Positions 6,497-24,000 are shown, counted from the first letter of the stretch. The stretch: DNA of 24,000 nt from Hydrogenoanaerobacterium saccharovorans (GCF_003814745.1 NZ_RKRD01000001.1:1793947-1817946), one strand, 5' to 3'. The notes: generated by a model from the sequence alone, not told the origin. Numbers and translations: made by a program.

Positions 6497-7289
6497 ATTT
6501 ATTCACCTCATTTGTAATGTGAAGAACCGCTTCAAGCACACCGCCGGCAATCGCGCGTGCCTTATCTGAAACTGTAAAACAATATTCGTATATTCCGCGC
6601 GGGTCAACATCCCCGCTTTTCATCCCCTCAAAAACAGGGGTATTGGGGGGCAGCATCCCCCGCACGATTCCATCAATATTGGTATAAACGGGCTTTGAAC
6701 CCACAGTTGCTACAACATCGCCGGCCTTAACCATATCGCCTATATCCGCAACAGGTGTAAAAATACCGTCACAGCAAGCACGTAAGATACGTTCGCTCGT
6801 AAAGCCTGCAATATTGCCCGGTATGCCGGTGTTAGCGGCTGCACTGCCTTTATAAAGCACACGCCCAAGGTTGTGCCCGCGTTTGGTTTCGATAACAGCG
6901 TGACAATCGACGCCTGCTGTAAAACCGGGCCCAAGTGCCACAACAGCAGGGGCATCGGTGATGGATGTGTTGATGTTCTTTTTTGCAATGATGGCATCTA
7001 TTACCGCTTGAGGGTGCAGCTCTTTGATAATTTCAGCTTCGGGGTCAACAACAATTGCAACCTCATTTTGCCTGAGAGTTTCCCATACCTCACCTAAATT
7101 CGTACACAAACTCGCGGTAATACCTTCCACCACGGCTTTTTGCTCGTACACCGCACGAGAGAATGCAACCGTGCGTCTGACTGTAGTGGGTTTTGCAGTT
7201 TCAGTCATCACTACATCAAACCCGCACATTTTAAGCCTGCATGCCACACCGGTTGCCAAATCGCCCGCGCCTTTTATTAAAATCAGCAT
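6489..7289 (-). CDS. yqeB: YqeB-family selenium-dependent molybdenum hydroxylase system protein (266 aa)
   Basis: N-terminus MLILIKGAGDLATGVACRL…VVMTETAKPTTVRRTVAFSRAVYE matches my recollection of the YqeB family. Sandwiched between yqeC and xdhC with overlapping stop/start codons. Confidence 0.8.
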   Translation of the reverse strand: MLILIKGAGDLATGVACRLKMCGFDVVMTETAKPTTVRRTVAFSRAVYEQKAVVEGITASLCTNLGEVWETLRQNEVAIVVDPEAEIIKELHPQAVIDAIIAKKNINTSITDAPAVVALGPGFTAGVDCHAVIETKRGHNLGRVLYKGSAAANTGIPGNIAGFTSERILRACCDGIFTPVADIGDMVKAGDVVATVGSKPVYTNIDGIVRGMLPPNTPVFEGMKSGDVDPRGIYEYCFTVSDKARAIAGGVLEAVLHITNEVNKYE

Positions 7290-8293: not shown

Positions 8294-8304
8294 AATAAAC
8301 GTCC

Positions 8305-8337
8305 TTTCGTGTAAACGTGTTCTTGTTTTTCGTGTAA
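8305..8337. repeat. Exact 10-nt direct repeat TTTCGTGTAA (8305..8314 and 8328..8337), interleaved with TAAACGT x2, in the yqeC/selD divergent region
   Basis: Read directly from the sequence. The copies are 23 nt apart. TAAACGT lies at 8296..8302 and 8312..8318. Confidence 0.7.
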
Positions 8338-8384
8338 GAATGGGGTAAGATAGAATACAAATAATCTTGATGGGAGGGTAAAAT

Positions 8385-9428
8385 ATGTCTGAGATGAAGG
8401 ATATGCGTTTAACACAAATGACCAAAAGCGCCGGTTGAGCATCCAAGATTGGACCAGGTGTCCTTGCACAAGTTTTGTGCAACTTACCAAAATTCTCCGA
8501 CCAAAACTTAATTGTAGGGTTCGACACCAGCGACGATGCTTGTGTTTATAAAATAAGTGATGAACTCGTTCTGATTCAAACGGTGGATTTCTTTCCGCCC
8601 ATTGTAGACGACCCATACATGTATGGGCAGATTGCCGCCACCAATGCGCTAAGCGATATTTACGCTATGGGTGCATCGCCAACGCTTGCAATGAATCTGC
8701 TTTGCTACCCGTCTTGCCTGCCGCAGGAAACGGTACAGGCAATTTTAGCGGGCGGCTACGACAAAGTGCGTGAAGCGGGTGCTATTATTGCTGGCGGGCA
8801 TACCATTGAAGACAGCGAACCCAAATACGGCTTGTGCGTCAGCGGGTTTGCACACCCCGATAAGATACTCAAAAACAGCGGCGCGCAAACAGGTGACTTG
8901 CTGATATTAACCAAACCGCTTGGCATTGGCATTCTTACAACTGCTGCAAAAGCAGATATGGCAGATGCCGTTGCTTATAGGCTTGCGGTTGAAAACATGT
9001 CTACACTGAACAAAGCCGCCTGTGAGGTTGTTTCGCGTTACCATGCGCATGCCTGCACCGATGTAACAGGGTTTGGCTTGCTTGGGCATGCTTTTGAGAT
9101 GGCGGATGGTTCTCGGCGCAGTATCAAACTGTTTTCTGGCGAAATACCCGTACTGCCCACTGCTGTAGAGCTAGCAGAAATGGGGATTATACCTGCAGGT
9201 GCATACACCAACATGAACTACCTGTACGAAAAGGTAAAGATAAACAACAGTGTGGCACGCAGTATGCGGGATATATTAGCGGACCCGCAAACCGCGGGAG
9301 GGTTGTTGGTTTCGGTCTCTGCAAAAGAGGCAACAGAAATGCTTGCCGAGTTGCAGCAGCGTACCCCTTGGGCACGCATCATCGGCGAGGTTGTGGATAA
9401 AACAGAACACAGCATCATTGTGGAATAA
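8385..9428 (+). CDS. selD: Selenophosphate synthetase SelD, a selenoprotein form (347 aa, Sec at codon 18 encoded by TGA 8436..8438)
   Basis: The track ORF starts at 8475, but the same frame is open upstream apart from one TGA. ATG at 8385 has a GGGAGGG RBS and gives MSEMKDMRLTQMTKSAG-U-ASKIGPGVLAQVL. That is the SelD N-terminal active-site motif, with Sec where E. coli has Cys17 and the Lys conserved 3 residues later. Confidence 0.9.
8439..8482 (+). promoter_or_regulatory. Candidate bacterial SECIS region downstream of the selD UGA
   Basis: Hairpin GGAC-CAGGU-GUCC (8451..8463) has a GGU-containing apical loop 17-21 nt after the UGA. A second hairpin UUGCACAA/UUGUGCAA lies at 8464..8482. The exact fold was not computed. 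Confidence 0.4.
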
Positions 9429-9441
9429 TGTGTCGCAACTG

Positions 9442-9470
9442 GCCTGCAGAGCTTTCTGCAGGCTTTTTTG
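9442..9470 (+). terminator. Rho-independent terminator of selD
   Basis: GCCTGCAGA (9442..9450) / TCTGCAGGC (9455..9463), followed by TTTTTTG. Confidence 0.85.
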
Positions 9471-9491
9471 TTTTTACAATAGACTTTGTAT

Positions 9492-9587
9492 TGGCGGGAG
9501 CATGTGGGAATCGAACCCACCCAGGCAGCAATCACTACCTGCAACGGTTTTGAAGACCGCAGGGCACACCAGCACCCATCTGCCCCC
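9492..9587 (-). tRNA. selC: tRNA-Sec (anticodon UCA), 96 nt with encoded CCA
   Basis: Hand-folded from the reverse complement GGGGGCAGAUGGGUGCUGGUGUGCCCU… Features: 8-position acceptor stem (7 pairs plus a G/A), 6-bp D-stem with 4-nt loop, anticodon loop CU-UCA-AA, 7-bp long variable arm, 5-bp T-stem with loop UUCGAUU, discriminator G, CCA. Confidence 0.92.
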
Positions 9588-9622
9588 ATATATAAGGGAT
9601 GCCTTTGCAGGCTTCCCTGTTT

Positions 9623-11509
9623 TTATTTCAACGTGCGTACATCCCCTGTTTTATTTGTGATGCCAACAGCATCAAAGTACTCGAGCAACTGCTGTGCAGG
9701 CTTACGAGAAATACCCAGTAAATCACGGTATTGTGCGAGGGTAATGTTGCTGTTTTTCAATAGATACTGTTTCAGTTTTTGTACCGCCGAATTGTAATAT
9801 TCTGCACCAATACAGCATCCCGATGGTAATTTGATAAGTGCACCGCTATGCATCAACAAAAGGGCAACACGAAGCAGAGTTCGGTCATCAGATGCTATTG
9901 ATTCGGGCGGTGCAGGTACAAAGCCTTGTTTATTGTAAAAAAACATCACCTTTTCTTTTAACGTAACATAAAGCGAGGTGCGCTCACAGCAAAAAGTTGG
10001 CAGGGCAACCATATGGGATAGAACGGAAATAACCCCACGTTTATTCAGTAAATGTAATATTTCATCCGCTGCAGGTGCAGGGTTCTGCCCAAACAGCGCA
10101 ACTTTAAACTCCTGTTTTGGCATTCCTTCCTCTAGAGGGTTGCGATTATGATAATCGGAAAGAAGTGTCTGTGCTTTTTGTGCTATCAGTTGTAAATACT
10201 CTAATAATACAAACAGTTGTGAATCGGTTTTTATTACGTCGCCTTTGTCAATTAACGCTTGCAATTCTTCTTGAAGCCGCTCTTTTGGTATTTTAGGCAT
10301 TTTAGAGTGTATTTGTTCTTGCATATACAAAACAGATGATGTTCTCATCAACTGTAAAATTTGCTCGCGGAGTGTGCCTGTATCTGCTATACGAATCGCA
10401 TTTAGTACCGTAATATCACTGCGCTTATGGCGCACTGGGTTTGCATTCAGTACTGTCCCGCCGCCGATAGTACACAAAGGAGAGTAAAAACGAACCACAA
10501 ATCGGTCCCCGTTTCTAACTGCTACAGGGCTTTCTAAGCGAAGTTGTGCGTAAGCGCTTTTGCCTGCTTGCAGTTCGTTTGTACCAAACAAAACTATACG
10601 ACACAATACAGCCGAAGTGCCAATAAAAAGATGAACGCGCTGATTGTTGACAATTGGTTTTTCTATATTCGGCAAACCAATAAGCTTTACATCCAAATAG
10701 TATGTTGCACTCAATGAGCCTGAATAGGCAAGTACATCTCCGCGCTTTAGCTTTTGTTTGTTTATTCCGGTGAGATTTACCGCCGCACGCTGCCCCGCCG
10801 CCACTTTTTCAACATTTTTACCATAGCTTTGCAGCCCGCGTATCTTTGCAGCCTCTCCGCTTGGGTAAATGCTGATGCTATCGCCAACCGTAACAGAACC
10901 TTCGGCTACAACACCGGTTACTACCGTACCAAAGCCGTCTACGGTAAACACACGGTCGATAGGGAGCCGAAAGGACTGCGCGTCATTTTGGTAAGGGATA
11001 CTTGCAGAAATGGTTGCTATTGCCGTACACAAAGCGTCAATACCTACACCAGTCTTACAAGAAACCGCATATACCGGTGCATCTGCAAGAAAGCTGTTTG
11101 CAAAACGCTCTGCAATATCCTGCTTTGCAAGGGCAAGCCCCTCCGCATCGACAAGGTCTGTTTTAGTTATTACAACGATACCTCGTTTGATGCCGAGCAG
11201 AGATAATATTTCAAGGTGCTCTGCGGTTTGAGGCATAACGCCTTCGTCGGCAGCAACTACCATCAAGACAAGGTCGATACATCCTGCACCAGCAAGCATA
11301 TTTTTGATAAAGCGTTCGTGCCCCGGTACGTCGATAATGCCTGCCTGCACCCCATTGGGCAGCGCCATATGAGCAAAACCAAGGTCAATGGTAATTCCGC
11401 GGCGTTTTTCCTCTGCAAGGCGGTCGGTATCCATACCGGTAAGTGCACGAATCAGGCAGGTTTTACCGTGGTCGATGTGGCCTGCTGTTCCGATAATGAT
11501 ATGTTTCAT
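9623..11509 (-). CDS. selB: Selenocysteine-specific translation elongation factor SelB (628 aa)
   Basis: GTPase N-terminus [53 protein letters not shown], and a long C-terminal winged-helix-type extension. Its ATGA start overlaps the selA stop. Confidence 0.93.
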
Positions 11510-12888
11510 AGTGCGTTTGCTACCCCCTGTGCCACCAAATCGAACTCATGCTCATCTATGGTGGAAACATCGAGCAACAAGCGGTTTTCGCTGATGCGTG
11601 CAATGATAGGTGTTTCAAAAGCACGCAATTTCTGTTCCAGCTGTGTAACGGTTATTTTATAAGGTGCAATTGCAACCGCCGCAGTTGGAAATACCTGTGC
11701 AGGTAAACTACCGCCACCCGCCTGCCGCTGTTGCCGAACCACCTCTACTGTATACCCAGGGCAGTTATCTAAAATCTTTTGGCATAGCAACTGTGCTTTT
11801 TCAGTTAGAGTGGCAATGTCTGCGAAAAGCATACGCAAAGCGGGGATTTCTTTGCATGCCTGTACAGGGTCACGATACAAATGCAGTGTTGCCTCAAGTG
11901 CTGCGAGCGATAATTTATCAAGCCTCAATGCTCGTGCTAGAGGGCTGCGTTTCATTCGGTTGATACATTCCGCAGAGCCTACAATAATACCAGCCTGTGG
12001 ACCACCAAGCAGCTTATCACCGCTAAAGGTTACTATATCTGCACCGTCACGCAGAGCCTGCGGCACAGTTGGCTCAATCGAAATAGGGTATGCATGTTCA
12101 TCAAGCAAAGCACCGCTTCCAAGGTCATATACAACGGGGATATTGCGTTGTTTGCCCAGCTTTGCAAGCTCAGTGAGCGGCACATCACCCGAAAATCCGA
12201 TAATTTTATAGTTGCTGGTATGCACTTTTAAAAATACCGCTGTTTGGTCGGTTATTGCATTTACGTAGTCGCGCAGATGGGTTTTGTTGGTTGCGCCCAC
12301 TTCAACCAAGCGCCCGCCGCTCTGCTCCATAATATCGGGGACACGAAAGCTATCGCCGATTTCTACCAATTCTCCGCGTGAAACAATAATTTCCCTATTG
12401 TTCGCAAGGGTGGAAAGTGTTAGCAAAATAGCCGCCGCGTTGTTGTTTACCGCCATTGCTGCTTGTGCCCCTGTAAGCTCGCAGAGCAGAGGTTCTATGT
12501 GCTCTCCTCGATTGCCTCGTGCGCCCTTTTCCGCATCGTATTCTAACGTGGAATACCCCGAAGCAGCGTCATACACTGCCTGCAACGCCGATTTACTCAG
12601 CGGAGCTCGCCCAAGGTTGGTGTGCAGAACAATACCCGTTGCATTGATGACACGCCGCAGGCTCATCGTGCTCAAGCAATTTGCCCTTGCCAACACCGCG
12701 TTACTAAGGCATTCTGTTGACGGCACTTCGTTGCACTCGCCTGCGATAAGCTTGGCTCGTAGGCTATCCAGTTCGGCGCGAACCGCCTGCAAAAGAACTG
12801 AATGATGATATTGCTGCTGTAAAAGCGCAGGCTGACGCAAAAGTTCGTCCACTTTTGGAATTTGGCGCAAAAGCGGGTTGGATGGCAT
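11506..12888 (-). CDS. selA: L-seryl-tRNA(Sec) selenium transferase SelA (460 aa from ATG 12888; a TTG one codon upstream is possible)
   Basis: N-terminal [12 protein letters not shown] motif, [32 protein letters not shown]-lysine region. GGAG RBS sits in the 17-nt gap after the upstream gene. Confidence 0.92.
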
Positions 12889-12908
12889 CAAGCAACGCTC
12901 CTTTCGTC

Positions 12909-14066
12909 TTATTCTGCAAGAATTTTATGTATACACTTAACCACATAATCAATTTCAGTAATGGTGTTAAAATGGCTGATGGAAAAGCGCACTGTCCCCT
13001 GCGGGAAAGTACCCAGAGTTTTATGTGAATTGGGGGCACAGTGCAGCCCGCAGCGCGTCATAATACCATACTCACTATCAAGGCGGTATGCAACCTCCGC
13101 ATTATCTTTGCCAAGAAAATCAAGCGACACAATCGCCGATTTTTTTGTTGCGTCGTCTACCCCCACCAAGCGCAACTTCTTTTCGGTAAGGCTTTCCATC
13201 ATACGTTGTGTAAGTGACTGCTCCTGCTCTCGGATCCGGTCAATACCGTATTTTTCGAGATAATTGAGAGAGGTGTTCAGCCCATAAATACCGGGGAGGT
13301 TCGGAGTACCTGCTTCAAAACGGTCCGGCAACAGCAGCGGCAAGGTTTCAAGGTTAGAAAAACTGCCGGTTCCACCCGAAAATAAAGGGGTGAGCTCTTT
13401 TGCAAAAGAATCAGTAATAAGAAAGCCCCCTATCCCCTGCGGTGCAAGCAGCCCTTTGTGGCCGGTAAAGCACAATGCATCTAGGTGCATCGCCTGCATA
13501 TTAATTGGAAAGGTGCCTCCTGTTTGTGCACAATCTACAATAAACTTTAATCCATGCTCGCGACAAAATGCACCCACCCATTCAATAGGCATCAAGGTAC
13601 CGCAAACATTGGAAGCATGCGTCATTACAACGGCTCTTGTATTGGGGCGCAGCATCGATTCCATTTCATCTACCATCAGTTCACCGTCGCGGTTACATGG
13701 TATACGGTCAAATGTAACACCGTTTTCGGTAAGCTGTGTCAGAGGACGCATGACTGCGTTATGCTCCATTGCAGATATTAACAGGTGATCACCTGCTTTA
13801 AAGCAGCCTTTTAAAACCATATTCAGAGCAACTGTTACGTTTTGTGTAAAGATGACATTGCGCGGCTCGTTAAAACCGAACAAAGTACATAAACGCTCAC
13901 GCGTATCAAGTACGACCTCCGCCGTACTGTAAGCATCTTCATATTCACCGCGGTTGACATTGCAACCAACATGCTCAATAAACTCACAAACACGCTGTGC
14001 AACTCCGGGAGCTTTGGGGTAGGTTGTACTGGCATTATCCAGATAGACTTTGCAGTTTTCAGCCAT
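12909..14066 (-). CDS. Class V aminotransferase-fold PLP enzyme, NifS/CsdA-like (cysteine desulfurase or selenocysteine lyase family), 385 aa
   Basis: YLDNASTTYPKAPGV…, FTGHKGLLAPQGIGG (PLP Lys), …RCGLHCAP (active-site Cys loop). Start moved from GTG 14075 to ATG 14066, which sits 6 nt after GAGGTGA. Confidence 0.85.
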   Translation of the reverse strand: MAENCKVYLDNASTTYPKAPGVAQRVCEFIEHVGCNVNRGEYEDAYSTAEVVLDTRERLCTLFGFNEPRNVIFTQNVTVALNMVLKGCFKAGDHLLISAMEHNAVMRPLTQLTENGVTFDRIPCNRDGELMVDEMESMLRPNTRAVVMTHASNVCGTLMPIEWVGAFCREHGLKFIVDCAQTGGTFPINMQAMHLDALCFTGHKGLLAPQGIGGFLITDSFAKELTPLFSGGTGSFSNLETLPLLLPDRFEAGTPNLPGIYGLNTSLNYLEKYGIDRIREQEQSLTQRMMESLTEKKLRLVGVDDATKKSAIVSLDFLGKDNAEVAYRLDSEYGIMTRCGLHCAPNSHKTLGTFPQGTVRFSISHFNTITEIDYVVKCIHKILAE

Positions 14067-14115
14067 CTTTATCACCTCATAAAGCTATGATACTATTTTT
14101 TCTAAAAAACCGCTA

Positions 14116-14141
14116 TATCTATAGATAAATTCTATAGATAT
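14116..14141. promoter_or_regulatory. Tandem palindromic boxes TATCTATAGATA (14116..14127) and TCTATAGATA (14131..14140): candidate operator in the divergent csd-selAB / yedE control region
   Basis: Read directly. The first box is a perfect 12-bp palindrome. The 10-mer TCTATAGATA is repeated exactly with a 13-nt period. Confidence 0.5.
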
Positions 14142-14185
14142 GCACAAATTATATAAAATTGCAATGCCTAAATTTGGAATTTATA

Positions 14186-14194
14186 TGCTATAAT
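14186..14194 (+). promoter_or_regulatory. Candidate extended -10 promoter (TGcTATAAT) for yedE-yedF-DUF3343
   Basis: TGCTATAAT lies 57 nt upstream of the yedE TTG start. It is followed by the 15-nt palindrome ATTAGTA-A-TACTAAT (14199..14213). No good -35 was found. Confidence 0.45.
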
Positions 14195-14250
14195 GATTAT
14201 TAGTAATACTAATCTATCAGTGATTTTAACACGAAAGGGCGGTTGTTTTC

Positions 14251-15333
14251 TTGAAAGGAAAGATAAAAATAGTAGTTGCCGGGTTGATCATCGGCGTCAT
14301 CTCGGTGGTGTTGGTGTTGATGGGCAACCCTGCCAATATGGGGTTTTGCATTGCTTGTTTTATTCGTGATACAGCAGGTGCAGTTGGTATGCACAGAGCG
14401 GAAATTGTGCAGTACATACGCCCCGAGATCATCGGTTTGGTTTTAGGCGCATTTCTTTTAGCAGTATGCAAAAAAGAGTTTTCACCGCGCGGCGGTTCTT
14501 CCCCCGTTACACGTTTTGTACTGGGCTTTTTTGTAATGGTTGGTGCACTGATGTTCCTCGGTTGCCCGTTTAGAATGATTCTTCGTTTGGCGGGCGGAGA
14601 CTGGAATGCTGTGTTGGGTTTACTTGGCTTTACTGTTGGAATTGGCATTGGCGTTGCATTTTTAAAGAACGGATACAGCCTAAAACGCACTTATACCCTG
14701 CCCGCCTTAGAGGGTGCAGCTCTGCCGGTAATTCAACTTGTGATGCTTACTTTGCTGCTCGCAGCACCTGCGTTTATTCTGTTCAGCACCGAGGGGCCCG
14801 GTTCAAAACATGCCCCTATTTTAGTATCCCTGGCAGCAGGTTTGATTGTAGGTGTTATTGCACAGCGTACAAGGCTTTGCATGGTAGGCGGTATCCGCGA
14901 TGTAATGCTGTTTAAAGACTGGACCTTGCTTGCGGGTTTTGCAGCAATTTTTGCAGGAGCCTTGGTTTGCAATTTAATATTTGGGTTGTTTCACCCCGGT
15001 TTTGCTAACCAGCCCGTAGCCCACACCGACGGACTTTGGAATTTTCTTGGTATGCTTGCTGTTGGCTTTGGCTCTGTACTTTTAGGCGGTTGCCCCATGC
15101 GCCAACTGGTACTTGCAGGCGAGGGCAACTCCGATTCTGCAATCACTGTGCTTGGTTTATTTGTTGGCGCAGCATTTGTACATAATTTTGGTCTTGCATC
15201 TTCGGGCAAAGGCCCTACTTTAAACGGGAAGATTGCTGTTATAACAGGGCTTATCATTATGGTAATTATCGCCGTTTGCAATATAAAAAATGCAAAGAAA
15301 GTTAAGGAGAAGGTATATGAACAACACAATTGA
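14251..15333 (+). CDS. yedE: YedE-family membrane protein (putative selenium/sulfur compound transporter), 360 aa, TTG start
   Basis: Polytopic membrane protein with the YedE signature GNPANMGFCIACFIRD and a second conserved Cys region (GGCPMRQ). GAAAGGG RBS. Followed by yedF. Confidence 0.85.
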   Translation: MKGKIKIVVAGLIIGVISVVLVLMGNPANMGFCIACFIRDTAGAVGMHRAEIVQYIRPEIIGLVLGAFLLAVCKKEFSPRGGSSPVTRFVLGFFVMVGALMFLGCPFRMILRLAGGDWNAVLGLLGFTVGIGIGVAFLKNGYSLKRTYTLPALEGAALPVIQLVMLTLLLAAPAFILFSTEGPGSKHAPILVSLAAGLIVGVIAQRTRLCMVGGIRDVMLFKDWTLLAGFAAIFAGALVCNLIFGLFHPGFANQPVAHTDGLWNFLGMLAVGFGSVLLGGCPMRQLVLAGEGNSDSAITVLGLFVGAAFVHNFGLASSGKGPTLNGKIAVITGLIIMVIIAVCNIKNAKKVKEKVYEQHN

Positions 15334-15526
15334 TGCACGCGGGCTTTCTTGCCCACAGCCGGTTATTATGCTGAAAAAGGTACTGGATGCCAAACCCAAT
15401 AGCTGCGAACTTTTGGTAGATAACCGTACCGCTGTGGAGAACACTACCCGCTATGCAGAAAATGCAGGCTATAAAGTTACGGTTGCACAAATAGATGACG
15501 AATATCATCTGAGCATTGTGAAATAA
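15317..15526 (+). CDS. yedF: YedF/TusA(SirA)-like sulfur/selenium carrier protein (69 aa)
   Basis: MNNTIDARGLSCPQPVIMLKKVL carries the TusA-type CPxP motif. Start trimmed to ATG 15317 behind AAGGAGAAGG. Overlaps the yedE 3' end by 17 nt. Confidence 0.85.
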   Translation: MNNTIDARGLSCPQPVIMLKKVLDAKPNSCELLVDNRTAVENTTRYAENAGYKVTVAQIDDEYHLSIVK

Positions 15527-15531
15527 AAGCT

Positions 15532-15771
15532 ATGATAACCTATATTGCAACTTTTTTTACCCACTTTGATGCAATCAGTTTTGCAAAGACACTGCACAAA
15601 AATGGGTTGGATGCAAAGCCAATGCCCGTGCCACGCAGGCTGTCATCCTCTTGCGGCACTTGCGTAAAATTCACCTCAGATGCTAGTCCATTAAATTACA
15701 AGCATGAGGGCATTGAGCAAATCGTATCTGTATCAGAAGACCACTATCAACTAGTATGGGACAATCGTTAG
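15532..15771 (+). CDS. DUF3343-like small protein (79 aa)
   Basis: Pattern …FFTHFDAISFAKTLHKNGLDAKPMPVPRRLSSSCGTCVKF matches my recollection of DUF3343. That domain is the C-terminal half of long YedF proteins. Begins 5 nt after the yedF stop. Confidence 0.7.
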   Translation: MITYIATFFTHFDAISFAKTLHKNGLDAKPMPVPRRLSSSCGTCVKFTSDASPLNYKHEGIEQIVSVSEDHYQLVWDNR

Positions 15772-15828
15772 TTTCGTAGGTAAGAATTCATATGCACATT
15801 TCAGCAACACATTAAATATCTGAATACC

Positions 15829-15865
15829 AAAAAGCCATCCGAAGGTCAATATCGGATGGCTTTTT
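15829..15865. terminator. Bidirectional rho-independent terminator between DUF3343 (+) and carbamate kinase (-)
   Basis: AAAAA-GCCATCCGA (15834..15842) … TCGGATGGC (15852..15860)-TTTTT. Confidence 0.9.
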
Positions 15866-15915
15866 GGCTTGGTATCTATGGTTTATCGGAGATAGAAGTA
15901 TGGCATATAAATAAG

Positions 15916-16845
15916 TTATTTGATGACGGTACCGGTTTTACCTGCAATGCCGTTTTTTGCCTTTTCAAGCAATGTAATTAAAGCAGTGCGGTTTGCTTTA
16001 CTCTCTGCAAATTGTACCGCAGCCTGTACCTTAGGCAACATGGAGCCAGGCGCAAAATGCCCTTCTTCCATATATTTTCTCGCCTCATCAGGTGTAATTT
16101 CAGACAACCATTTTTGTTCGGGTTTGCCAAAGTTAATAGCGACCTTTTCAACCGCTGTGAGAATGATAAGGTAATCGGCATCAATCTGCTCTGCAAGCTT
16201 AGCACTTGCAAAGTCTTTATCGATTACCGCAGGGACACCTTTGAGGTGGTTGCCCTGTTTAATAACGGGGATACCGCCGCCGCCGCCCGCAATGACAATC
16301 TGACCTGCGTCGATCAGTGCCTTGATAATATCAAGCTCTACGATTTCCTGCGGTTTTGGAGACGCAACAACACGGCGGTAGCCGCGGCCTGCATCTTCAA
16401 TTACTTTGCAGCCTTTTTCAGAAACTAATTTATCGGCCTCTTCTTTGGTCATAAATGCACCGATTGGCTTTGTGGGGTTTTCAAAAGCTTTGTCCTCGGG
16501 ATCTACCGCAACTTGTGTTAACACGGTAGAAACCGCTTTTTTAATGCCGCGGTTGAGTAATTCTTCGCGCAGTGCATTCTGCAGGTCGTAACCAATGTAG
16601 CCTTGGCTCATTGCAACGCAAACAGAAAGTGGCGCAAGGGGCTGGTTGTGTACACGGCTGAATTCTGCCATTGCATTTTGGATCATACCTACCTGCGGGC
16701 CGTTGCCATGAGAAATAACAACCTGATGGCCCTCTTCGATAAGATCTGCGATGGCTTTGGAGGTTTCTTTGACAGCAATCATCTGCTCGGGGAGATTATT
16801 ACCGAGTGCGTTGCCGCCGAGTGCGATGACTATCTTTTTGCCCAT
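15916..16845 (-). CDS. arcC: Carbamate kinase (YqeA/ArcC-like), 309 aa
   Basis: MGKKIVIALGGNALG…, VISHGNGPQVG, IAGGGGGIPV. Start trimmed to ATG 16845 behind AAGAGGT. Confidence 0.9.
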   Translation of the reverse strand: MGKKIVIALGGNALGNNLPEQMIAVKETSKAIADLIEEGHQVVISHGNGPQVGMIQNAMAEFSRVHNQPLAPLSVCVAMSQGYIGYDLQNALREELLNRGIKKAVSTVLTQVAVDPEDKAFENPTKPIGAFMTKEEADKLVSEKGCKVIEDAGRGYRRVVASPKPQEIVELDIIKALIDAGQIVIAGGGGGIPVIKQGNHLKGVPAVIDKDFASAKLAEQIDADYLIILTAVEKVAINFGKPEQKWLSEITPDEARKYMEEGHFAPGSMLPKVQAAVQFAESKANRTALITLLEKAKNGIAGKTGTVIK

Positions 16846-16890
16846 AAATTTTACCTCTTTCGGTTTATAATTGGCAAATTTCACAATTAA

Positions 16891-16943
16891 TAGAAATAAA
16901 ATGGCTCACCTACACAGAATTAGGGTTCATGCAGGTGAGCCAT
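16891..16943 (-). terminator. Hairpin plus U-rich tract after ygeW (possible internal terminator or attenuator before arcC)
   Basis: 11-bp stem ATGGCTCACCT (16901..16911) / AGGTGAGCCAT (16933..16943) with a 21-nt loop. On the minus strand it is followed by UUUAUUUCUA. Confidence 0.45.
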
Positions 16944-16973
16944 AAGAATTGTTAATGGTTCATGCAAGCAGGA

Positions 16974-18170
16974 TTATTTCTGCATCCAACGCTCTAAGCC
17001 ACGAGCCTCAAGAGCAGCAAGTGTCTTCTGAGGATCTTTTACTTTGGCCAAGAAGATCATAGCAGCAATGATGTAAGGTTTGTAGGAAGCCTCTTTGTAC
17101 AAAGGTGTGCGGTAGCGATCGAATACCGATGCAGCAACTTCGCCCTCTTTGCAGCTAACGCCTGTAATATCGGCAGGCAGGCAGTGCATGTAAAGTGCTT
17201 TGCCGTCTTTTGTGGTTTTCATCAGCTCTTCGGTGCACTCCCAATCTTTGTGGTTGGCATTTTGAGCAAGCAGCTCTTTCTCAAGAACTTTGATACCGTC
17301 AAAATCGTTTTCGCCGTAAAGGTTGGTACGCTTCTCCATTGCAGCAAACGGTGCCCAGCTCTTGGGGTAAACAACGTCAGCATCTTTAAATGCTTCTGCC
17401 ATGCTATTTACTTTCTTAAAGCTACCGCCGGAAGCAGCTGCGTTTTTCTTAGCAACTTCTTCAACCTCAGGCATTACTTCGTAGCCCTCGGGATGTGCAA
17501 GGACAACATCCATGCCGAAACGAGTCATCAAGCCGATGATGCCCTGAGGAACAGACAGAGGTTTGCCGTAAGAAGGAGAATATGCCCAAGTCATAGCAAT
17601 CTTTTTGCCCTTCATATTCTCAATGCCGCCAAAATGGTGAACCAGAGCCAAAGCGTCTGCCATTGCCTGTGTGGGATGGTCAATATCGCACTGTAAGTTC
17701 ACAAGAGTTGGTCTCTGCTCGAGAACGCCTTCTTTATTACCTTCTTGTACTGCTTCAGAAACTTCGTGCATGTAAGCATTGCCTTTGCCGATGTACATAT
17801 CATCACGGATACCGACGACGTCTGCCATAAAGGAAACCATGTTAGCAGTTTCACGAACGGTTTCACCATGTGCTATCTGAGATTTACCCTCATCCAAATC
17901 TTGTACTTCAAGACCCAGCAGGTTGCAAGCAGATGCAAAGCTGAAACGTGTTCTGGTAGAGTTGTCGCGGAAAATGGAAATACCCAAACCGCTGTCAAAA
18001 ATTTTGGTAGAAACGTTCTGTTCACGCAGATGGCGCAGAGCGTCTGCTACGGTGAAAACAGCTTTCAGTTCGTCGTCGGTTTTCTCCCAAGTCAGGAAGA
18101 AATCGTTTTGATACATTTTAGAGAAATCAAGTTTATTAAGAGTTTCGATATATTTGTTAAGTCCGCTCAT
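16974..18170 (-). CDS. ygeW: YgeW-type (knotted) carbamoyltransferase, 398 aa
   Basis: Transcarbamylase motifs FRDNSTRTRFSF and MHCLPA. The long N-terminal extension and overall length are typical of YgeW rather than OTC or ATC. Context with ygeX, ygeY and carbamate kinase. Confidence 0.85.
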   Translation of the reverse strand: MSGLNKYIETLNKLDFSKMYQNDFFLTWEKTDDELKAVFTVADALRHLREQNVSTKIFDSGLGISIFRDNSTRTRFSFASACNLLGLEVQDLDEGKSQIAHGETVRETANMVSFMADVVGIRDDMYIGKGNAYMHEVSEAVQEGNKEGVLEQRPTLVNLQCDIDHPTQAMADALALVHHFGGIENMKGKKIAMTWAYSPSYGKPLSVPQGIIGLMTRFGMDVVLAHPEGYEVMPEVEEVAKKNAAASGGSFKKVNSMAEAFKDADVVYPKSWAPFAAMEKRTNLYGENDFDGIKVLEKELLAQNANHKDWECTEELMKTTKDGKALYMHCLPADITGVSCKEGEVAASVFDRYRTPLYKEASYKPYIIAAMIFLAKVKDPQKTLAALEARGLERWMQK

Positions 18171-18232
18171 TGTGTATCTCCTTTATAATTTTATTTAACC
18201 GCATTACCTGCGGGCTGTAAACGTAACTGTAC

Positions 18233-19429
18233 TTATTTATTGCAGTAGATTGAAGGCATTGCGGCATAAACAGCAGCGCAACGAACCAAATCTTCTTTCC
18301 ATGTTTTCTCGTTGGGAGCATGTGCCTGAGCCTCTTTACCGGGGCCAAAGCCGATGCAAGGGATGCCATAACGGCCCATAATGGAAACACCGTTGGTAGA
18401 GAAAGTCCATTTATCTACCTTAGGCTCACCGTACATGCCTTTGTAAGCCTCAACCATTGCTTTTGTAGCAGCATGATCTTCGGGAATAACCCAAGTTGGG
18501 AAGTAGCAGTCGGTGGGGTAAACAAGCCCGGTCCAAGACGGACGCTCGTAGGTGTACATGCTAACTTCTGCACCGTATTTCTTGCAAGAAGGCAGGTTAC
18601 GTACTTCTTCCAAAGCCATCTCGTAGGTTTCACCATCGGTGAGGCGGCGGTCAAGAGAAACTGCACAAGAGTCTGCAACAGCGCAGCGAGAGGGAGATGT
18701 GTAGAAAATCTGAGAAGTGGTAACGGTACCTTTACCCAAGAACGGATCGTAGTGGAGGTTATTATTCAGCTCGCGAACTTCTTGCAGGATATCTGCCATT
18801 TTGTAGATAGCATTATCGCCGCGCTCGGGTGCAGAACCGTGGCAGGATACACCTTTTACATCAATACGGATTTCCATACGTCCGCGCTGGCCACGGTAAA
18901 TGTTGCCGTCTGTTGGCTCGGTAATCACAACGAATTCCGGTTTCACTTTGTCTTCGTTGATGATGTACTGCCAGCAAAGTCCGTCGCAGTCTTCTTCCTG
19001 TACAGTGCCTGTTACAACAACAGTGTATTTATCGCTGAGAAGACCAAGATCTTTCATGATTTTTGCGCCGTATACGCCGGAAACAATACCGCCCAACTGG
19101 TCGGAGGTTCCGCGTCCGCCGATTTCGGTTTCTGTTTCGAAACCTTCATAGGGGTCAAATGTCCAGTTTGCTTTGTTGCCGATACCAACGGTATCGATAT
19201 GAGCATCGTAGCCGATGAGGGTTTTACCTGTGCCCATATAACCCAGAATATTACCCATCGGGTCGATTACAACTTTATCAAAGTTGAGGTCTTTCATCTC
19301 TTTTTCAATTCTTTTGATGACGCCCTCCTCTTCGCAGCTTTCGCCGGGGATAGCAACGAGATCACGCAGGAATTTTGTCATTGCAGCTTCGTAACCCTGA
19401 GCTGCTTCTTTGATTTTGTTAAAATCCAT
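18233..19429 (-). CDS. ygeY: YgeY-family M20 metallohydrolase (selenium-metabolism-linked peptidase/deacylase family), 398 aa
   Basis: M20 motifs ([10 protein letters not shown], …EEDCDG…, …[12 protein letters not shown]). Size and the ygeW/ygeX neighbourhood fit. Confidence 0.85.
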
Positions 19430-19503
19430 GATTGTAGTCTCCTTTTCAAATTTTTGTTTATCGCAGATTTATTTACTGAAAAATATGCCTTTGCCGTGGT
19501 AGC

Positions 19504-20724
19504 TTATTTGTTGCAGTAGGTTGGATGAGCACCGTTCCAAACAATGCCGCGGTAACTATCAGGGTCGGTGTCTCCCTCGGTGGAGAACATCAAAATTTTA
19601 GAGTTTTCGTCAAGCTTCAGCGCTTCACGAAGGTCTTTATACTCATCGCTCTCCATCAGAGTAGCAATCAGGCCCATACCAACTGCACCTGATTCGCCCG
19701 AGACCACCTGCGGGTCACCTTTCATGGGTGCCCCAAGCATTCTCATACCTTTTGCAGCTACCCAATCGGGGCAGGATACAAAGAAACTGCTGTGATTTTT
19801 AAGAATATCCCAAGAAATTGTGTTTGGCTCACCACATGCCAAACCTGCCATAATCGTTTGCAAATCACCCTCTGCAAAACGGATTTTACCATCTTGCTCA
19901 GCAGCAGATTTGTAGAGACAAGCTGCAATTTCAGCTTCCATAATCACAGTGGTGGGGCAGTTATCGGGGTACATATTGGCAAAGAAGCCCTGCACCGCAC
20001 CTGCCAACGAGCCTACACCTGCTTGCACAAAAATGTGAGTGGGTCTGTCCACACCGGCTGCTTTCAGCTGTTCGTAAGCCTCCATTGCCATGGTGCCATA
20101 GCCTTGCATAATCCAAGCGGGGATTTCTTCGTAGCCGTCCCATGCAGTGTCTTGCACCATAACGCCGTGCTCGGTTTTTTGCGCCATTGAATTTGCCATT
20201 CGAACACATTCGTCGTAGTTAACTTCTTCGATGCTAACCTTTGCACCCTCTTTTGCAATATTGTCAAAACGGGTTTTGGTAGAGCCTTTGGGCATAAGTA
20301 CAACCGATTTTTGACCAAGTTTGTTTGCCGCCCAAGCAACGCCTCTGCCGTGGTTGCCGTCGGTAGCGGTAAAGAAAGTTGCCTGACCAAACTCTTCGCG
20401 GAGTTTATCGGAGGTTAAGTAATTATAATCAACTTCAGAAACGTCTTTGCCAAGCTGCTGGGCTATGTAACGAGCCATGGCAAAAGAACCGCCCAATACT
20501 TTGAATGCATTTAAACCAAAACGATAAGATTCATCTTTAACAAAAAACTCTTTAACACCAAGCACCCCTGCCATATTCTTTAAATGTGCCAAAGGTGTGG
20601 TTGTATATTGCGGAAAGCTTTTATGGAATGCTCTTGCTTTTTCTACCTCAGACAGCGCCATAACTTTTAGCTTCGCGTCATCGGTTTTAGGCATTTTGTT
20701 TTCTACCCATTTGATCTTATCCAT
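19504..20724 (-). CDS. ygeX: Diaminopropionate ammonia-lyase (YgeX/DpaL), 406 aa
   Basis: PLP fold-type II enzyme with DESYRFGLNAFKVLGGSFA (Lys) and TATDGNHGRGVAW. Start trimmed to ATG 20724 behind AGGAGGGG. Confidence 0.88.
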   Translation of the reverse strand: MDKIKWVENKMPKTDDAKLKVMALSEVEKARAFHKSFPQYTTTPLAHLKNMAGVLGVKEFFVKDESYRFGLNAFKVLGGSFAMARYIAQQLGKDVSEVDYNYLTSDKLREEFGQATFFTATDGNHGRGVAWAANKLGQKSVVLMPKGSTKTRFDNIAKEGAKVSIEEVNYDECVRMANSMAQKTEHGVMVQDTAWDGYEEIPAWIMQGYGTMAMEAYEQLKAAGVDRPTHIFVQAGVGSLAGAVQGFFANMYPDNCPTTVIMEAEIAACLYKSAAEQDGKIRFAEGDLQTIMAGLACGEPNTISWDILKNHSSFFVSCPDWVAAKGMRMLGAPMKGDPQVVSGESGAVGMGLIATLMESDEYKDLREALKLDENSKILMFSTEGDTDPDSYRGIVWNGAHPTYCNK

Positions 20725-20787
20725 TCGACAAACCCCTCCTAATTTTATAGCGGCAATTTTCATTGCGTAGTGTTGCTTTATGTCTCC

Positions 20788-20815
20788 ATCATAGCACAGA
20801 AATAGAATAAATCAA
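20788..20815 (-). promoter_or_regulatory. Candidate promoter of the ygeX-ygeY-ygeW(-arcC) operon
   Basis: On the minus strand: TTGATT (20810..20815), 16-nt spacer, TGcTATGAT (extended -10, hexamer 20788..20793). Confidence 0.5.
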
Positions 20816-20887
20816 TAGATTTTCTAAAAAATTTTTAGATTTGCTCAAAAATATTTTATTTTTACCATAAAGTTGCTGTTTTATAGC

Positions 20888-20916
20888 TTGCTTTTTTCAT
20901 TTTTAGATGATAAACT
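20888..20916 (+). promoter_or_regulatory. Candidate promoter of the xanthine-dehydrogenase-like gene, implying a ~170-nt leader
   Basis: TTGCTT (20888..20893), 17-nt spacer, TAAACT (20911..20916). A weaker alternative is TTGTGT-N17-CATACT at about 20956..20984. Confidence 0.35.
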
Positions 20917-21094
20917 ATCTAATAGTAACACTATAACTCTTTTAATGTTTTTTAATTGTGTACAAAGTGCAGTAAAGTCATACTTCGATTAAATTGTACC
21001 GAACCTAAAATATTTTTAGGGGTTTTAGCGTCGTTATAAAAACGAGTGCTTCGTGCACGGGCTACATTAAATATTGGGGAAACGAGGTGCAGTA

Positions 21095-23653
21095 ATGTTT
21101 GAATTCGTGGTTAACGGAAAGACAACTTTTGCACAGAAGGATGAAAAGCTGATTACATATTTAAGAGAAACGCTTCATCTCACTTCTGTAAAAAACGGAT
21201 GCTCTGAAGGTGCATGCGGAACATGTATGGTTTTGGTAGATGGCAAGGCGACAAAAGCCTGTATTTTAACCACAGCACGCGCAGCAGGTAAAAGCATTGT
21301 TACCGTAGAGGGGCTATCCTCTCGTGAAAAAGATGTTTACGGTTATGCATTTACGCATGTTGGTGCCGTACAATGTGGATTTTGTACACCGGGTATGGTC
21401 ATCAGTGCCAAAGGCTTGATTGACACAAACCCAAATCCATCGCCTATGGATGTAAAAGAAGCGATTAAAAATAACATTTGCCGTTGCACCGGTTATAAAA
21501 AAATAGAAGAGGCAATTTTGCTTTCTGCTAAACTGTTCCGCGAGAACACCGCTGTACCAAAACAAGAATTTTGCGGTGTAATTGGCGAAAACCTGCACCG
21601 TGTGGATGCCACCGCTAAAGCACTTGGTACAGCAGAATATGCCGATGATATCCATATAGACGGCATGCTGTATGGAAGTGCAGTACGCAGCAGCTATCCC
21701 CGCGCCCTTGTAAAACATATTGATGTCACCGAAGCAAAAGCATTGCCCGGTGTTGTTACTGTGCTTACCGCTGCCGATTTGCCCGGCAACCATAAAATTG
21801 GGCATTTGAAAAAAGATTATGATGTGTTGATTGCCGAGGGTAAAGAAACTCATTTTATCGGCGATGCAATTGTGCTGATTGCGGCAGAAAGCAAGGAAAT
21901 TTTGGAAGAAGCCAAAAAGCTTGTTAAAATTGATTTTGAAGAGCTGAAACCCGTTCTGTCTGTTCAGGATTCGATAGCAGAGGGTGCGCCGTTGATTCAC
22001 GAAACCGGTAACCTGCTTGCCGACGAACATTTGGTGCGCGGCGACGCCGACGAAACAATAAAAAATTCGAAACACTCTGTAACAATGCGTTACAGCACAC
22101 CTTTTACCGACCATGCGTTTCTTGAACCCGAAACTGCAGTTGCAATGCCAGAAGGTGACGGTGTGCTTATTTACTCAGGTGACCAGGGTATTTATCAGAC
22201 ACGCAAAGAGTGCAGCGAAGCACTTGGATTGCCCGAAGATAAAGTACGCGTCATTGCAAAAATGGTAGGCGGTGGTTTTGGCGGCAAAGAAGATATGAGT
22301 GTTCAGCATCATGCTGCTGTTCTCGCATACAAATCTCAACGCCCCGTTAAAGTTTCTTTTACGCGGAAAGAAAGTATTATGATACACCCCAAACGCCACC
22401 CGATGGAGATGGAGTTTACCACTGCATGTGACGAAAACGGTTACCTCACAGCGATGAAGGCAACATTGCTTGCCGATACAGGTGCTTATGCGTCACTCGG
22501 CGGCCCTGTTTTGCAAAGAGCTTGTACGCATGCGGCAGGTCCATACAATTATCAAGTAATTGATATCCACGGGCAGGCTTGGTATACCAATAACCCGCCT
22601 GCAGGCGCATTCCGCGGCTTTGGTGTAACACAAAGTTGCTTTGCAACAGAGTGCAACCTCAACCTGTTGGCTGAAAAAGTAGGCATATCCCCTTGGGAAA
22701 TACGCTATCGTAACGCAATTCGTCCAGGTGAGGTATTGCCTAACGGACAAATCGCAGATGAATCTACCGCATTGGTAGAAACTTTGGAGGCTGTAAAACC
22801 ATACATGGATGCTCACCCCAAAGCAGGTATTGCTTGTGCAATGAAGAACAGCGGGCTTGGCGTCGGCATCCCCGATACCGGACGCTGCCGACTAACCGTC
22901 AAAGATGGAAAGGTGCATATCCACAGCAGTGCAGCTTGCATTGGGCAGGGTATGGGTACCGTTGTTACACAAATGGTTTGCACAACTCTTAGTCTCTCCC
23001 CCGAACAAGTAATTTATGATGCGCCCGACACAAAAGAAGCACCCAATGCAGGCAATACAACTGCATCCCGTCAGACACTGTTTACCGGCGAGGCAACCCA
23101 CCGCGCTGCTATGGCACTGAAAGAAGCACTGGGCAGTAATTCGCTCGAAAGCCTGAACGGCAGAGAGTTTATAGGCGAATACCTCGGTGTAACCGATAAA
23201 ATGGGCAGTGACAAGCCAAACCCCGTCAGCCATATTGCTTACGGTTATGCAACTCACGTGGTAGATTTGGATGAAAGCGGCAAGCTTTTAAAGGTAATTG
23301 CAGCACATGATGTTGGCAAAGCGGTTAACCCCATCAGCGTTGAAGGGCAAATTGAAGGTGGCGTTGTTATGAGCCTTGGATACGCTTTAACCGAAGATTT
23401 TCCGCTGAAAGACGGTGTTCCCACCGCGAAATACGGTACACTTGGCTTAATGAAATCGACGCAAGTACCTGAAATTGAGTCGATGATCATTGAGAAGAGC
23501 CACAGTGACTTGGCATACGGCGCAAAAGGTATCGGTGAAATCTGCTCTATTCCCACTCCACCCGCAGTTCAGCTTGCTTACTACAACTTGGACGGCAAGT
23601 TTAGAACAAAACTGCCGATGGAAGACACCCCCTACTCCAGAAAAAAGAAATAA
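21095..23653 (+). CDS. Selenium-dependent-type molybdenum hydroxylase (xanthine dehydrogenase-like): fused [2Fe-2S] plus molybdopterin-binding polypeptide, 852 aa
   Basis: N-terminal CSEGACGTCMVLVDG…AC, VQCGFCTPGMV and CRCTGY form the two 2Fe-2S sites. These are followed by aldehyde-oxidase/XDH a/b-hammerhead and Mo-binding motifs (GGGFGGKE, AFRGFG, AYGAKGIGE). Start trimmed from TTG 21074 to ATG 21095 behind GAGGTG. Confidence 0.88.
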   Translation: MFEFVVNGKTTFAQKDEKLITYLRETLHLTSVKNGCSEGACGTCMVLVDGKATKACILTTARAAGKSIVTVEGLSSREKDVYGYAFTHVGAVQCGFCTPGMVISAKGLIDTNPNPSPMDVKEAIKNNICRCTGYKKIEEAILLSAKLFRENTAVPKQEFCGVIGENLHRVDATAKALGTAEYADDIHIDGMLYGSAVRSSYPRALVKHIDVTEAKALPGVVTVLTAADLPGNHKIGHLKKDYDVLIAEGKETHFIGDAIVLIAAESKEILEEAKKLVKIDFEELKPVLSVQDSIAEGAPLIHETGNLLADEHLVRGDADETIKNSKHSVTMRYSTPFTDHAFLEPETAVAMPEGDGVLIYSGDQGIYQTRKECSEALGLPEDKVRVIAKMVGGGFGGKEDMSVQHHAAVLAYKSQRPVKVSFTRKESIMIHPKRHPMEMEFTTACDENGYLTAMKATLLADTGAYASLGGPVLQRACTHAAGPYNYQVIDIHGQAWYTNNPPAGAFRGFGVTQSCFATECNLNLLAEKVGISPWEIRYRNAIRPGEVLPNGQIADESTALVETLEAVKPYMDAHPKAGIACAMKNSGLGVGIPDTGRCRLTVKDGKVHIHSSAACIGQGMGTVVTQMVCTTLSLSPEQVIYDAPDTKEAPNAGNTTASRQTLFTGEATHRAAMALKEALGSNSLESLNGREFIGEYLGVTDKMGSDKPNPVSHIAYGYATHVVDLDESGKLLKVIAAHDVGKAVNPISVEGQIEGGVVMSLGYALTEDFPLKDGVPTAKYGTLGLMKSTQVPEIESMIIEKSHSDLAYGAKGIGEICSIPTPPAVQLAYYNLDGKFRTKLPMEDTPYSRKKK

Positions 23654-23667
23654 GCAGAACATAACAA

Positions 23668-23706
23668 AGAGCGCGAGACCAATAAAAAGGTCACGCGCTC
23701 TTTTTC
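23668..23706. terminator. Terminator hairpin between convergent xdh-like gene and the right-edge gene
   Basis: AGAGCGCGAGACC (23668..23680) / GGTCACGCGCTCT (23689..23701) with one mismatch, followed by TTTTT. Confidence 0.8.
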
Positions 23707-23727
23707 GTCAGCTTATTTCAATAGATA

Positions 23728-24000
23728 TTAGGGCAGCTTCCAAAACTCCTCGGCAGAGTAAGTGGGCTGTTCATTTCTGTAATATGCATAGGTAGTTGGA
23801 TAACCTGAGGGGATTAGTGTAATAACGCGATTTGCTGCAGCACCTTCCGCCCCTGAAAAAGAATCGACTGCATTGGAAAAATGAAAACAGTTTTTTGTCA
23901 TATACGCGCGGTAAAAATCCATATAAAATGGCCTACCGTTGCGCCCTGCTCCCTCATTGGGTATGAGTTTGGTACCGTTTATCAAGCTTTCACGCAACAT
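23728..24000 (-). CDS. C-terminal part of an unidentified CDS, probably continuing beyond the window edge
   Basis: Open frame from the edge to the stop at 23728, preceded on its 3' side by the terminator. No family recognised. The apparent ATG at 24000 may be coincidental. Confidence 0.4.
   Translation of the reverse strand: MLRESLINGTKLIPNEGAGRNGRPFYMDFYRAYMTKNCFHFSNAVDSFSGAEGAAANRVITLIPSGYPTTYAYYRNEQPTYSAEEFWKLP

Follow-up and report, generated by a model that had tools for sequence, protein, structure and literature searches.

A dpaL-ygeY-ygeW-carbamate kinase module in Hydrogenoanaerobacterium saccharovorans as the likely ATP-making tail of anaerobic urate degradation

Four co-oriented genes and their products

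Hydrogenoanaerobacterium is a genus of the Oscillospiraceae, in the Bacillota. A 24,000-nucleotide (nt) stretch of the Hydrogenoanaerobacterium saccharovorans genome (GCF_003814745.1, NZ_RKRD01000001.1:1793947-1817946), here called the window and numbered from its first letter, carries on its minus strand between 15916 and 20763 four consecutive, co-oriented open reading frames (ORFs), which appear in the ORF listing as 15916-16884/16845, 16974-18170, 18233-19429 and 19504-20763/20724. In the direction of transcription, they encode a 2,3-diaminopropionate (DAP) ammonia-lyase (DpaL, also called YgeX), the hydrolase YgeY, the carbamoyltransferase YgeW and a carbamate kinase (Table 1). An earlier note, generated by a model from the sequence alone, had described the group as the ATP-yielding tail of an anaerobic purine or urate breakdown route with incompletely assigned steps, and the present analysis follows up that description.

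Table 1. Features of the locus; positions beyond 24000 are extrapolated from near-identical contigs
Feature	Position	Strand	Evidence and remarks
Adenine deaminase gene	2876-4582	+	TIGR01178, 556 bits; ~11 kb from the tail operon
XdhC-family maturation factor gene	5465-6496	-	overlaps the yqeB gene
yqeB (short)	6489-7289	-	49% identical to the C-terminal half of E. coli YqeB; TIGR03309, 374 bits
LysR-HTH-YqeC fusion gene, 336 aa	7283-8293	-	HTH at aa 1-88; match to the 'selenium metabolism-associated LysR' model limited to its N-terminus; YqeC domain TIGR03172, 193 bits
selD	8385-9428	+	ATG at 8385; in-frame TGA at 8436-8438, motif SAG-U-ASKIGPG; TIGR00476, 372 bits
tRNA-Sec	9492-9587	-	Rfam; island 9492-14075 with selB, selA and a gene for an SclA-like selenocysteine lyase/cysteine desulfurase
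yedE and 69-aa TusA/YedF-like gene (~15317-15526)	14251-15526	+	selenium-supply island
Intrinsic terminator downstream of arcC	15826-15868	-	17-bp stem (AAAAAGCCAUCCGA...UCGGAUGGCUUUUU), then U-rich tail
arcC/yqeA-type carbamate kinase gene, 309 aa	15916-16845	-	TIGR00746, 398 bits (cut-off 358); AAGAGG before the ATG at 16845
Promoter-like TTGCCA-18-TAAAAT	16877-16848	-	consensus scan; after the ygeW-arcC hairpin
Strong hairpin, then UUUUAUUUCU	16901-16943	-	between ygeW stop and arcC start; terminator/attenuator-like
ygeW, knotted carbamoyltransferase, 398 aa	16974-18170	-	TIGR03316, 798 bits (cut-off 500); NF005538, 792 bits
ygeY, M20 (ArgE/DapE-type) hydrolase, 398 aa	18233-19429	-	TIGR03526, 693 bits (cut-off 321.5); Pfam Peptidase_M20 and M20_dimer
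dpaL/ygeX, DAP ammonia-lyase, 406 aa	19504-20724	-	TIGR03528, 654 bits (cut-off 532); AGGAGG before the ATG at 20724
Promoter-like TTGATT-16-TG-TATGAT	20788-20815	-	consensus scan, 9/12 matches, extended -10 TG; ~64 nt upstream of the dpaL ATG
15-nt palindrome CTAAAA-N3-TTTTAG, two copies	20824-20838 and 21005-21019	.	divergent dpaL/Mo-hydroxylase spacer
Fused 2Fe-2S and molybdopterin hydroxylase gene, 852 aa	21095-23653	+	TIGR03311 'Se_dep_XDH', 1461 bits (cut-off 830)
Transglutaminase-core gene	23728-25011	-	Pfam Transglut_core; begins within the window (23728-24000)
HAAS/RDD membrane protein gene	~25182-25829	-	Pfam HAAS, RDD
hyuA	25952-27355	-	TIGR02033, 599 bits
ygfK	27454-30447	-	TIGR03315, 1507 bits
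ssnA	30510-31847	-	NF005540, 696 bits

The stop codon of the carbamate kinase gene ends at position 15916. The spacers measure 74 nt between dpaL and ygeY (19430-19503) and 62 nt between ygeY and ygeW (18171-18232), exactly the lengths first noted for this co-oriented group, and 128 nt separate ygeW from the kinase ATG at 16845. An alternative kinase start, a GTG at 16884, would give a protein of 322 amino acids (aa); the 309-aa form is the one called on near-identical contigs. On the plus strand, the ORFs that overlap this group were rejected as shadow ORFs, having no Pfam match. One of these, a 399-aa ORF (18320-19519) antisense to ygeY, runs in the codon-aligned antisense frame and likewise has no Pfam match. 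Among 68 ygeY orthologues, high-GC ones included, only 27 keep that frame free of stops for at least 350 aa (the median being 260 aa), and the ORF is most likely a shadow produced by the avoidance of TTA, CTA and TCA codons.

Family membership was judged from NCBIfam curated cut-offs, Pfam domains and comparison with the PDB, with the proteins of the Escherichia coli K-12 cluster as reference. All four proteins score above their NCBIfam cut-offs, three of them by a wide margin, which bears out the gene assignments of the earlier note, and their Pfam domains are concordant. Identity to the E. coli enzymes is 70% for YgeW, 71% for YgeY, 66% for the kinase YqeA and 46% for YgeX. Among solved structures, YgeW matches 2YFK from Enterococcus faecalis (765 bits) and 3Q98, E. 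coli YgeW itself (621 bits); DpaL matches 5YGR and 4D9G, both DAP ammonia-lyases; the kinase matches 1B7B and other carbamate kinases; and for YgeY no PDB structure was matched at E<=1e-20. The STRTR, HPTQ and HCLP motifs of YgeW (carbamoyl-phosphate and substrate motifs) stand at positions identical to those of the E. coli protein. DpaL keeps the equivalents of the catalytic residues K77, D120 and D189 of E. coli YgeX.

A canonical identity of YgeW as ornithine carbamoyltransferase (OTC) or aspartate carbamoyltransferase (ATC) was rejected, with 128 bits against TIGR00658 (cut-off 281) and 78 bits against TIGR00670 (cut-off 237); OTC models as a group give at most 128 bits for cut-offs of at least 280. 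OTC or ATC specificity had been named at the outset as an outcome that would speak against a role in urate breakdown, and scores so far under the cut-offs predict that YgeW does not have it. The reading of the locus as an arginine deiminase (ADI) operon was also rejected: no arcA and no catabolic OTC lies beside arcC, and neither gene was found among the long non-overlapped window ORFs of at least 80 aa or among the genes called on the extended loci.

Gene order was surveyed in 80 species-representative loci retrieved with YgeW, onto which the window proteins were mapped. All counts refer to the matches listed and, for each arrangement, to loci with enough room on the relevant side or sides; the best genome-contig match is 86% identical. 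The ygeY gene lies directly upstream of ygeW in 64/65 loci and arcC directly downstream in 61/73, and the full dpaL-ygeY-ygeW-arcC order and orientation recurs in 42 of the 59 loci with room on both sides. Because of these counts, the four-gene set is a conserved module, far beyond a chance neighbourhood. In most related loci, the module lies within 10 kb of ssnA, ygfK, hyuA or genes resembling xanthine dehydrogenase (XDH) genes.

The promoter-like sites in Table 1 are consensus matches only. Upstream of dpaL, Rfam detected no riboswitch or leader, its only match being the tRNA-Sec elsewhere, and the 62-nt and 74-nt spacers showed no significant RNA structure when folded against shuffles. Between ygeW and arcC, a hairpin stands out, with a minimum free energy of -27.8 kcal/mol, a hairpin-only centroid of -26.7 and z = -5.0, and none of 200 shuffles folds as well; its form suggests an intrinsic terminator or attenuator. 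The terminator 3' of arcC folds at -30.4 kcal/mol (z = -5.9). From this layout, dpaL, ygeY and ygeW are probably transcribed together from the promoter-like site near 20800, and arcC may be expressed by partial read-through of the hairpin, from a promoter of its own, or both. The kinase may thus be partly independent of ygeW, because a hairpin, a U-run and a promoter-like site lie between them, which suggests that the ATP-yielding step is transcriptionally semi-independent.

These same elements would also suit a general-purpose arcC, serving for example arginine deiminase or another source of carbamoyl phosphate, that merely happens to follow ygeW and is transcribed alone. Such a gene would fit the match to the generic arcC equivalog TIGR00746, and in some urate degraders the kinase is indeed encoded elsewhere in the genome (Liu et al. 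2025, bioRxiv 2025.04.24.650524). We nevertheless regard this explanation as unlikely. The kinase gene directly follows ygeW in the 61 of 73 related loci counted above and in 33/39 strains of Liu et al. (2025), the scanned window ORFs include no arcA or canonical OTC, and E. coli YqeA, 66% identical to the kinase, couples with YgeW to make ATP (Liu et al. 2025). Nor do the two roles exclude each other, in that a shared kinase would still serve the urate pathway.

A molybdenum hydroxylase and the remaining pathway genes

Directly beside dpaL, and divergent from it across a 370-nt AT-rich spacer, lies the gene for a molybdenum (Mo) hydroxylase. The protein has the Pfam domains Fer2, Fer2_2, Ald_Xan_dh_C, MoCoBD_1 and MoCoBD_2, without a flavin adenine dinucleotide (FAD) domain or FAD subunit. 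Its Mo domains start at about residue 309; in the 2,8-dioxopurine dehydrogenase (DOPDH) of Clostridium sporogenes, which has the same layout, they occupy aa 307-839 (Liu et al. 2025). Orthologues with 53-76% identity stand beside urate genes in many related loci among the matches listed. Because both the Fe-S/Mo architecture and the synteny with urate genes match those of C. sporogenes XdhAC, the protein is probably a DOPDH of the XdhAC type and the first enzyme of the pathway. Its identity to E. coli XdhD is 26%, and to XdhA 30%. Glu606 of XdhD has been put forward as a marker of 2,8-dioxopurine specificity (Li et al. 2025, Life Metab, PMC12507026); this residue sits in an insertion peculiar to XdhD and absent from the window protein, so that the marker cannot classify it. 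The cluster membership given in the earlier note holds as far as it went: a pathway-type Mo-hydroxylase lies within the window, next to dpaL, and had not been linked there to the cluster.

The right end of the window was extended through near-identical contigs, on which window positions were extrapolated. A 356-kb metagenome contig from ENA is 99.2% identical to window 6974-24000, and a 420-kb JGI contig is 98.2% identical to the window. That ssnA, hyuA and ygfK lie outside the window had been correctly stated, and the extension that was then proposed located all three 2-8 kb past the right end of the window, on the 99.2%-identical contig. Among named organisms, Hydrogenoanaerobacterium sp. 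has the closest relatives of HyuA and YqeC (87% and 83% identity).

Further out, the contig carries two PAS_6/HTH_22 regulator genes, an NCS2 permease of the xanthine/urate type (34% identical to UacT), a RidA gene and, elsewhere, a genuine pyrB-pyrI pair. The two regulator genes (YheO-like) are adjacent and divergent, upstream of ssnA. The RidA enamine/imine deaminase gene adjoins the NCS2 purine permease gene some 12-14 kb past the right end (1637-2014 and 2317-3645 in L086, a 21-kb extended version of the locus), and RidA is plausible as a helper for 2-aminoacrylate released by DpaL. The transglutaminase-core and HAAS/RDD genes (L086 11527-13628) are unrelated to purine catabolism and split the Mo-hydroxylase gene from hyuA; their products gave no NCBIfam match.

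Predicted reactions and the readings that compete with them

The pathway has been reconstituted with enzymes from E. coli, C. sporogenes and Clostridioides difficile (Liu et al. 2025; Li et al. 2025). In these orthologous systems, XdhAC (DOPDH) or XdhD-YgfM reduces urate to 2,8-dioxopurine, which is reduced in turn by YgfK, and ring opening by SsnA and HyuA gives 2,3-diureidopropionate (Liu et al. 2025; Li et al. 2025). With ADP and Mg, YgeW and YqeA produced ATP from 2,3-diureidopropanoate (Liu et al. 2025), and YgeW with phosphate, followed by YgeY and YgeX, gave albizziin and then pyruvate (Li et al. 2025). Mutants in ygeX accumulate DAP, and genetic evidence shows that urate consumption requires the orthologous enzymes (Liu et al. 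2025; Li et al. 2025).

By analogy with these assayed orthologues, the window proteins would perform the same reactions. The selenium-dependent Mo-hydroxylase would convert urate to 2,8-dioxopurine, YgfK would dearomatise it, and SsnA and HyuA would open the rings to yield 2,3-diureidopropionate. YgeW would then combine this compound with phosphate to form carbamoyl phosphate and a mono-ureido-aminopropionate, and carbamate kinase would use the carbamoyl phosphate and ADP to form ATP, CO2 and NH3, for a gain of one ATP per urate by substrate-level phosphorylation. The second ureido group of the mono-ureido-aminopropionate would be hydrolysed by YgeY, leaving DAP, from which DpaL would release pyruvate and two NH3, feeding central metabolism and the formation of short-chain fatty acids. 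The two biochemical statements of the earlier note, that a carbamoyltransferase and a carbamate kinase lead through carbamoyl phosphate to ATP, and that DpaL makes pyruvate and ammonia within anaerobic urate or purine catabolism, match what was published for the E. coli and Clostridium orthologues. Its remark that steps were incompletely assigned is outdated as regards the substrates, which are now assigned (2,3-diureidopropionate for YgeW, mono-ureido-aminopropionate for YgeY); in the searchable literature, only the regiochemical order is still in dispute.

The region is thus read, with high confidence, as the terminal ATP-making module of the anaerobic reductive uric-acid pathway, known also as the 2,8-dioxopurine or 'yanthine' pathway. 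Gene identity, orthology, conserved order, and the presence of the remaining pathway genes and the selenium-cofactor genes in the same organism all support it. Some points weigh in the other direction. The ssnA, ygfK and hyuA genes were seen on near-identical contigs, outside the window itself. The terminator-like hairpin between ygeW and arcC means that the kinase may not be strictly co-transcribed with the other three genes. The adjacent Mo enzyme could be an XDH instead of a DOPDH. Lastly, the two studies disagree on which ureido group YgeW takes: its product is 3-amino-2-ureidopropanoate, with the 3-ureido group removed, according to Liu et al. (2025), and albizziin, with the 2-ureido group removed, according to Li et al. 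(2025). The exact product of YgeW and substrate of YgeY are uncertain to that extent, and no later paper settling the regiochemistry was found in the literature searchable here.

The separation of the tail genes from ssnA, ygfK and hyuA, by the Mo-hydroxylase gene and the transglutaminase-core and HAAS/RDD genes, leaves room for a different role, in which the module would stand alone and process free DAP, albizziin or other N-carbamoyl amino acids taken from the environment, with no feed from urate ring cleavage. Free DAP is in fact a substrate of E. coli YgeX in the 2025 reconstitution studies. A stand-alone role is nonetheless highly improbable, given that ssnA, ygfK, hyuA or XDH-like genes accompany the module in most related loci, that its sole neighbouring permease is of the NCS2 purine type, with no dedicated transporter for amino acids alongside, and that orthologous enzymes are needed genetically for urate consumption.

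Selenium island and comparison with known systems

To the left of the tail operon, the window holds a selenium gene set made up of yedE, yedF, an sclA-like gene, selA-selB-tRNA(Sec), selD, yqeC, yqeB and an XdhC-family gene, and the selenium-supply island directly abuts the operon. With yqeB, the yqeC domain and selD all recognised by their models (Table 1), the selenium-cofactor trait is present in the window. In the published systems, selenium is needed because the Mo-hydroxylases carry a SelD-dependent cofactor, and yqeB, yqeC and selD occur in every strain with the urate cluster (Liu et al. 2025). The position of the module within a selenium island would follow from this need for a SelD-dependent cofactor.

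The same position would be explained if the genes served selenium metabolism itself, as older annotation implies in calling YgeY a 'selenium metabolism-linked hydrolase' and YgfK a 'putative selenate reductase'. NCBIfam names keep the selenium label, and the flanks consist of yedE, the sclA-like gene, selA, selB, tRNA-Sec, selD, yqeC and yqeB. Published assays have largely refuted this function for YgeY and YgfK, and we give it almost no credence here: selenate is neither needed for YgfK activity nor stimulates it, selenium comes in through the SelD-dependent cofactor that the Mo-hydroxylases use (Liu et al. 2025), and the substrates defined for the enzymes are not selenium compounds (Liu et al. 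2025; Li et al. 2025).

Several genes of the island have features of their own. SelD is itself a predicted selenoprotein, with the in-frame TGA listed in Table 1; in the ORF listing, as in gene calls for related contigs, only the 317-aa part after the TGA appears. YqeC is fused to an N-terminal LysR-type helix-turn-helix (HTH) domain. Among the best 120 clusters of YqeC homologues, the combination of HTH_1 and YqeC occurs in only the 8 closest (56-100% identity, Hydrogenoanaerobacterium-like), the remainder being YqeC alone, of about 225-260 aa; judged from these sequences, the fusion is real, conserved and restricted to the clade. Where E. coli has a single YqeB of 541 aa, the window has a pair of overlapping genes, the first XdhC-like and the second for a short YqeB. 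At the far left of the window, adenine deaminase could feed adenine into the route through hypoxanthine and xanthine to urate.

The paired palindromes in the divergent spacer are the only 2 matches of CTAAAA-N3-TTTTAG in the 24-kb window (expected 0.27; 3/100 shuffles reach 2), and the same two sites, with no others, recur in the 21-kb L086. They are a weak hint of a candidate operator, or an effect of AT-rich composition. As a long shot, the tail operon and the DOPDH-type gene might be co-regulated from this spacer through the paired palindromes, with the LysR-HTH-YqeC fusion encoded 12 kb away as regulator. Transcription of purine catabolism would in that case be coupled directly to selenium or cofactor status by a protein of selenium-cofactor maturation.

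The locus is an orthologue of the published pathway, and its differences are confined to layout. The E. coli K-12 cluster (ygeW-ygeX-ygeY-hyuA-yqeA and ygfK-ssnA-ygfM-xdhD) has the same enzyme set, with identities of 45% for YgfK, 39% for HyuA and 36% for SsnA in addition to those given above, and it too has the accessory genes yqeB and yqeC and an NCS2 permease nearby. The order differs, E. coli having ygeW-ygeX-ygeY-hyuA-yqeA, whereas in the window the order is ygeX-ygeY-ygeW-kinase and hyuA is grouped with ssnA and ygfK. The window Mo enzyme is the fused Fe-S/Mo protein of TIGR03311, the Bacillota XdhAC type, without the FAD subunit YgfM. In place of the sigma-54 regulator YgeV, the window lineage has two PAS_6/HTH_22 regulators, and what is one YqeB in E. 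coli is divided between an XdhC-like gene and a yqeB gene.

The cluster of C. sporogenes (Liu et al. 2025) is of the Bacillota type and shares YgeX, YgeY, YgeW, YgfK, SsnA and HyuA with the window organism. It also has a fused, SelD-dependent Fe-S and Mo hydroxylase without an FAD subunit, the orthology of the Mo enzymes resting on architecture and synteny. The kinase lies elsewhere on the C. sporogenes chromosome, whereas in the window it directly follows ygeW. In C. difficile (Li et al. 2025), the same pathway runs in a variant form: the DpaL, YgeY, HyuA and SsnA steps are common, but UacY, a hydrolytic D-aminoacylase homologue, replaces YgeW and the kinase, with no gain of ATP, and UacX replaces YgfK. 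The window organism has YgfK and the ATP-yielding YgeW/kinase version. The logic of transcarbamoylase phosphorolysis to carbamoyl phosphate and then ATP is shared with the ADI pathway (ArcA-ArcB-ArcC) and with the oxamate branch of allantoin fermentation. The window differs from the ADI pathway in that its transcarbamoylase is of the YgeW subfamily and not an OTC, that no arcA was found, and that the substrate would be 2,3-diureidopropionate.

The enzymes, intermediates, ATP coupling, selenium dependence and wide distribution of the pathway in gut Bacillota were already published in 2025, and the pathway is relevant to gut urate disposal, gout and the energetics of anaerobes. The present locus adds another carrier with a slightly different layout, in which the tail operon, transcribed away from the Mo-hydroxylase gene, lies inside a full selenium-utilisation island. 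The module could help to settle which ureido group YgeW removes. For annotation, it allows the proteins labelled here as 'selenium metabolism-linked hydrolase', 'putative selenate reductase' and 'dihydropyrimidinase' to be renamed as likely steps of urate degradation.

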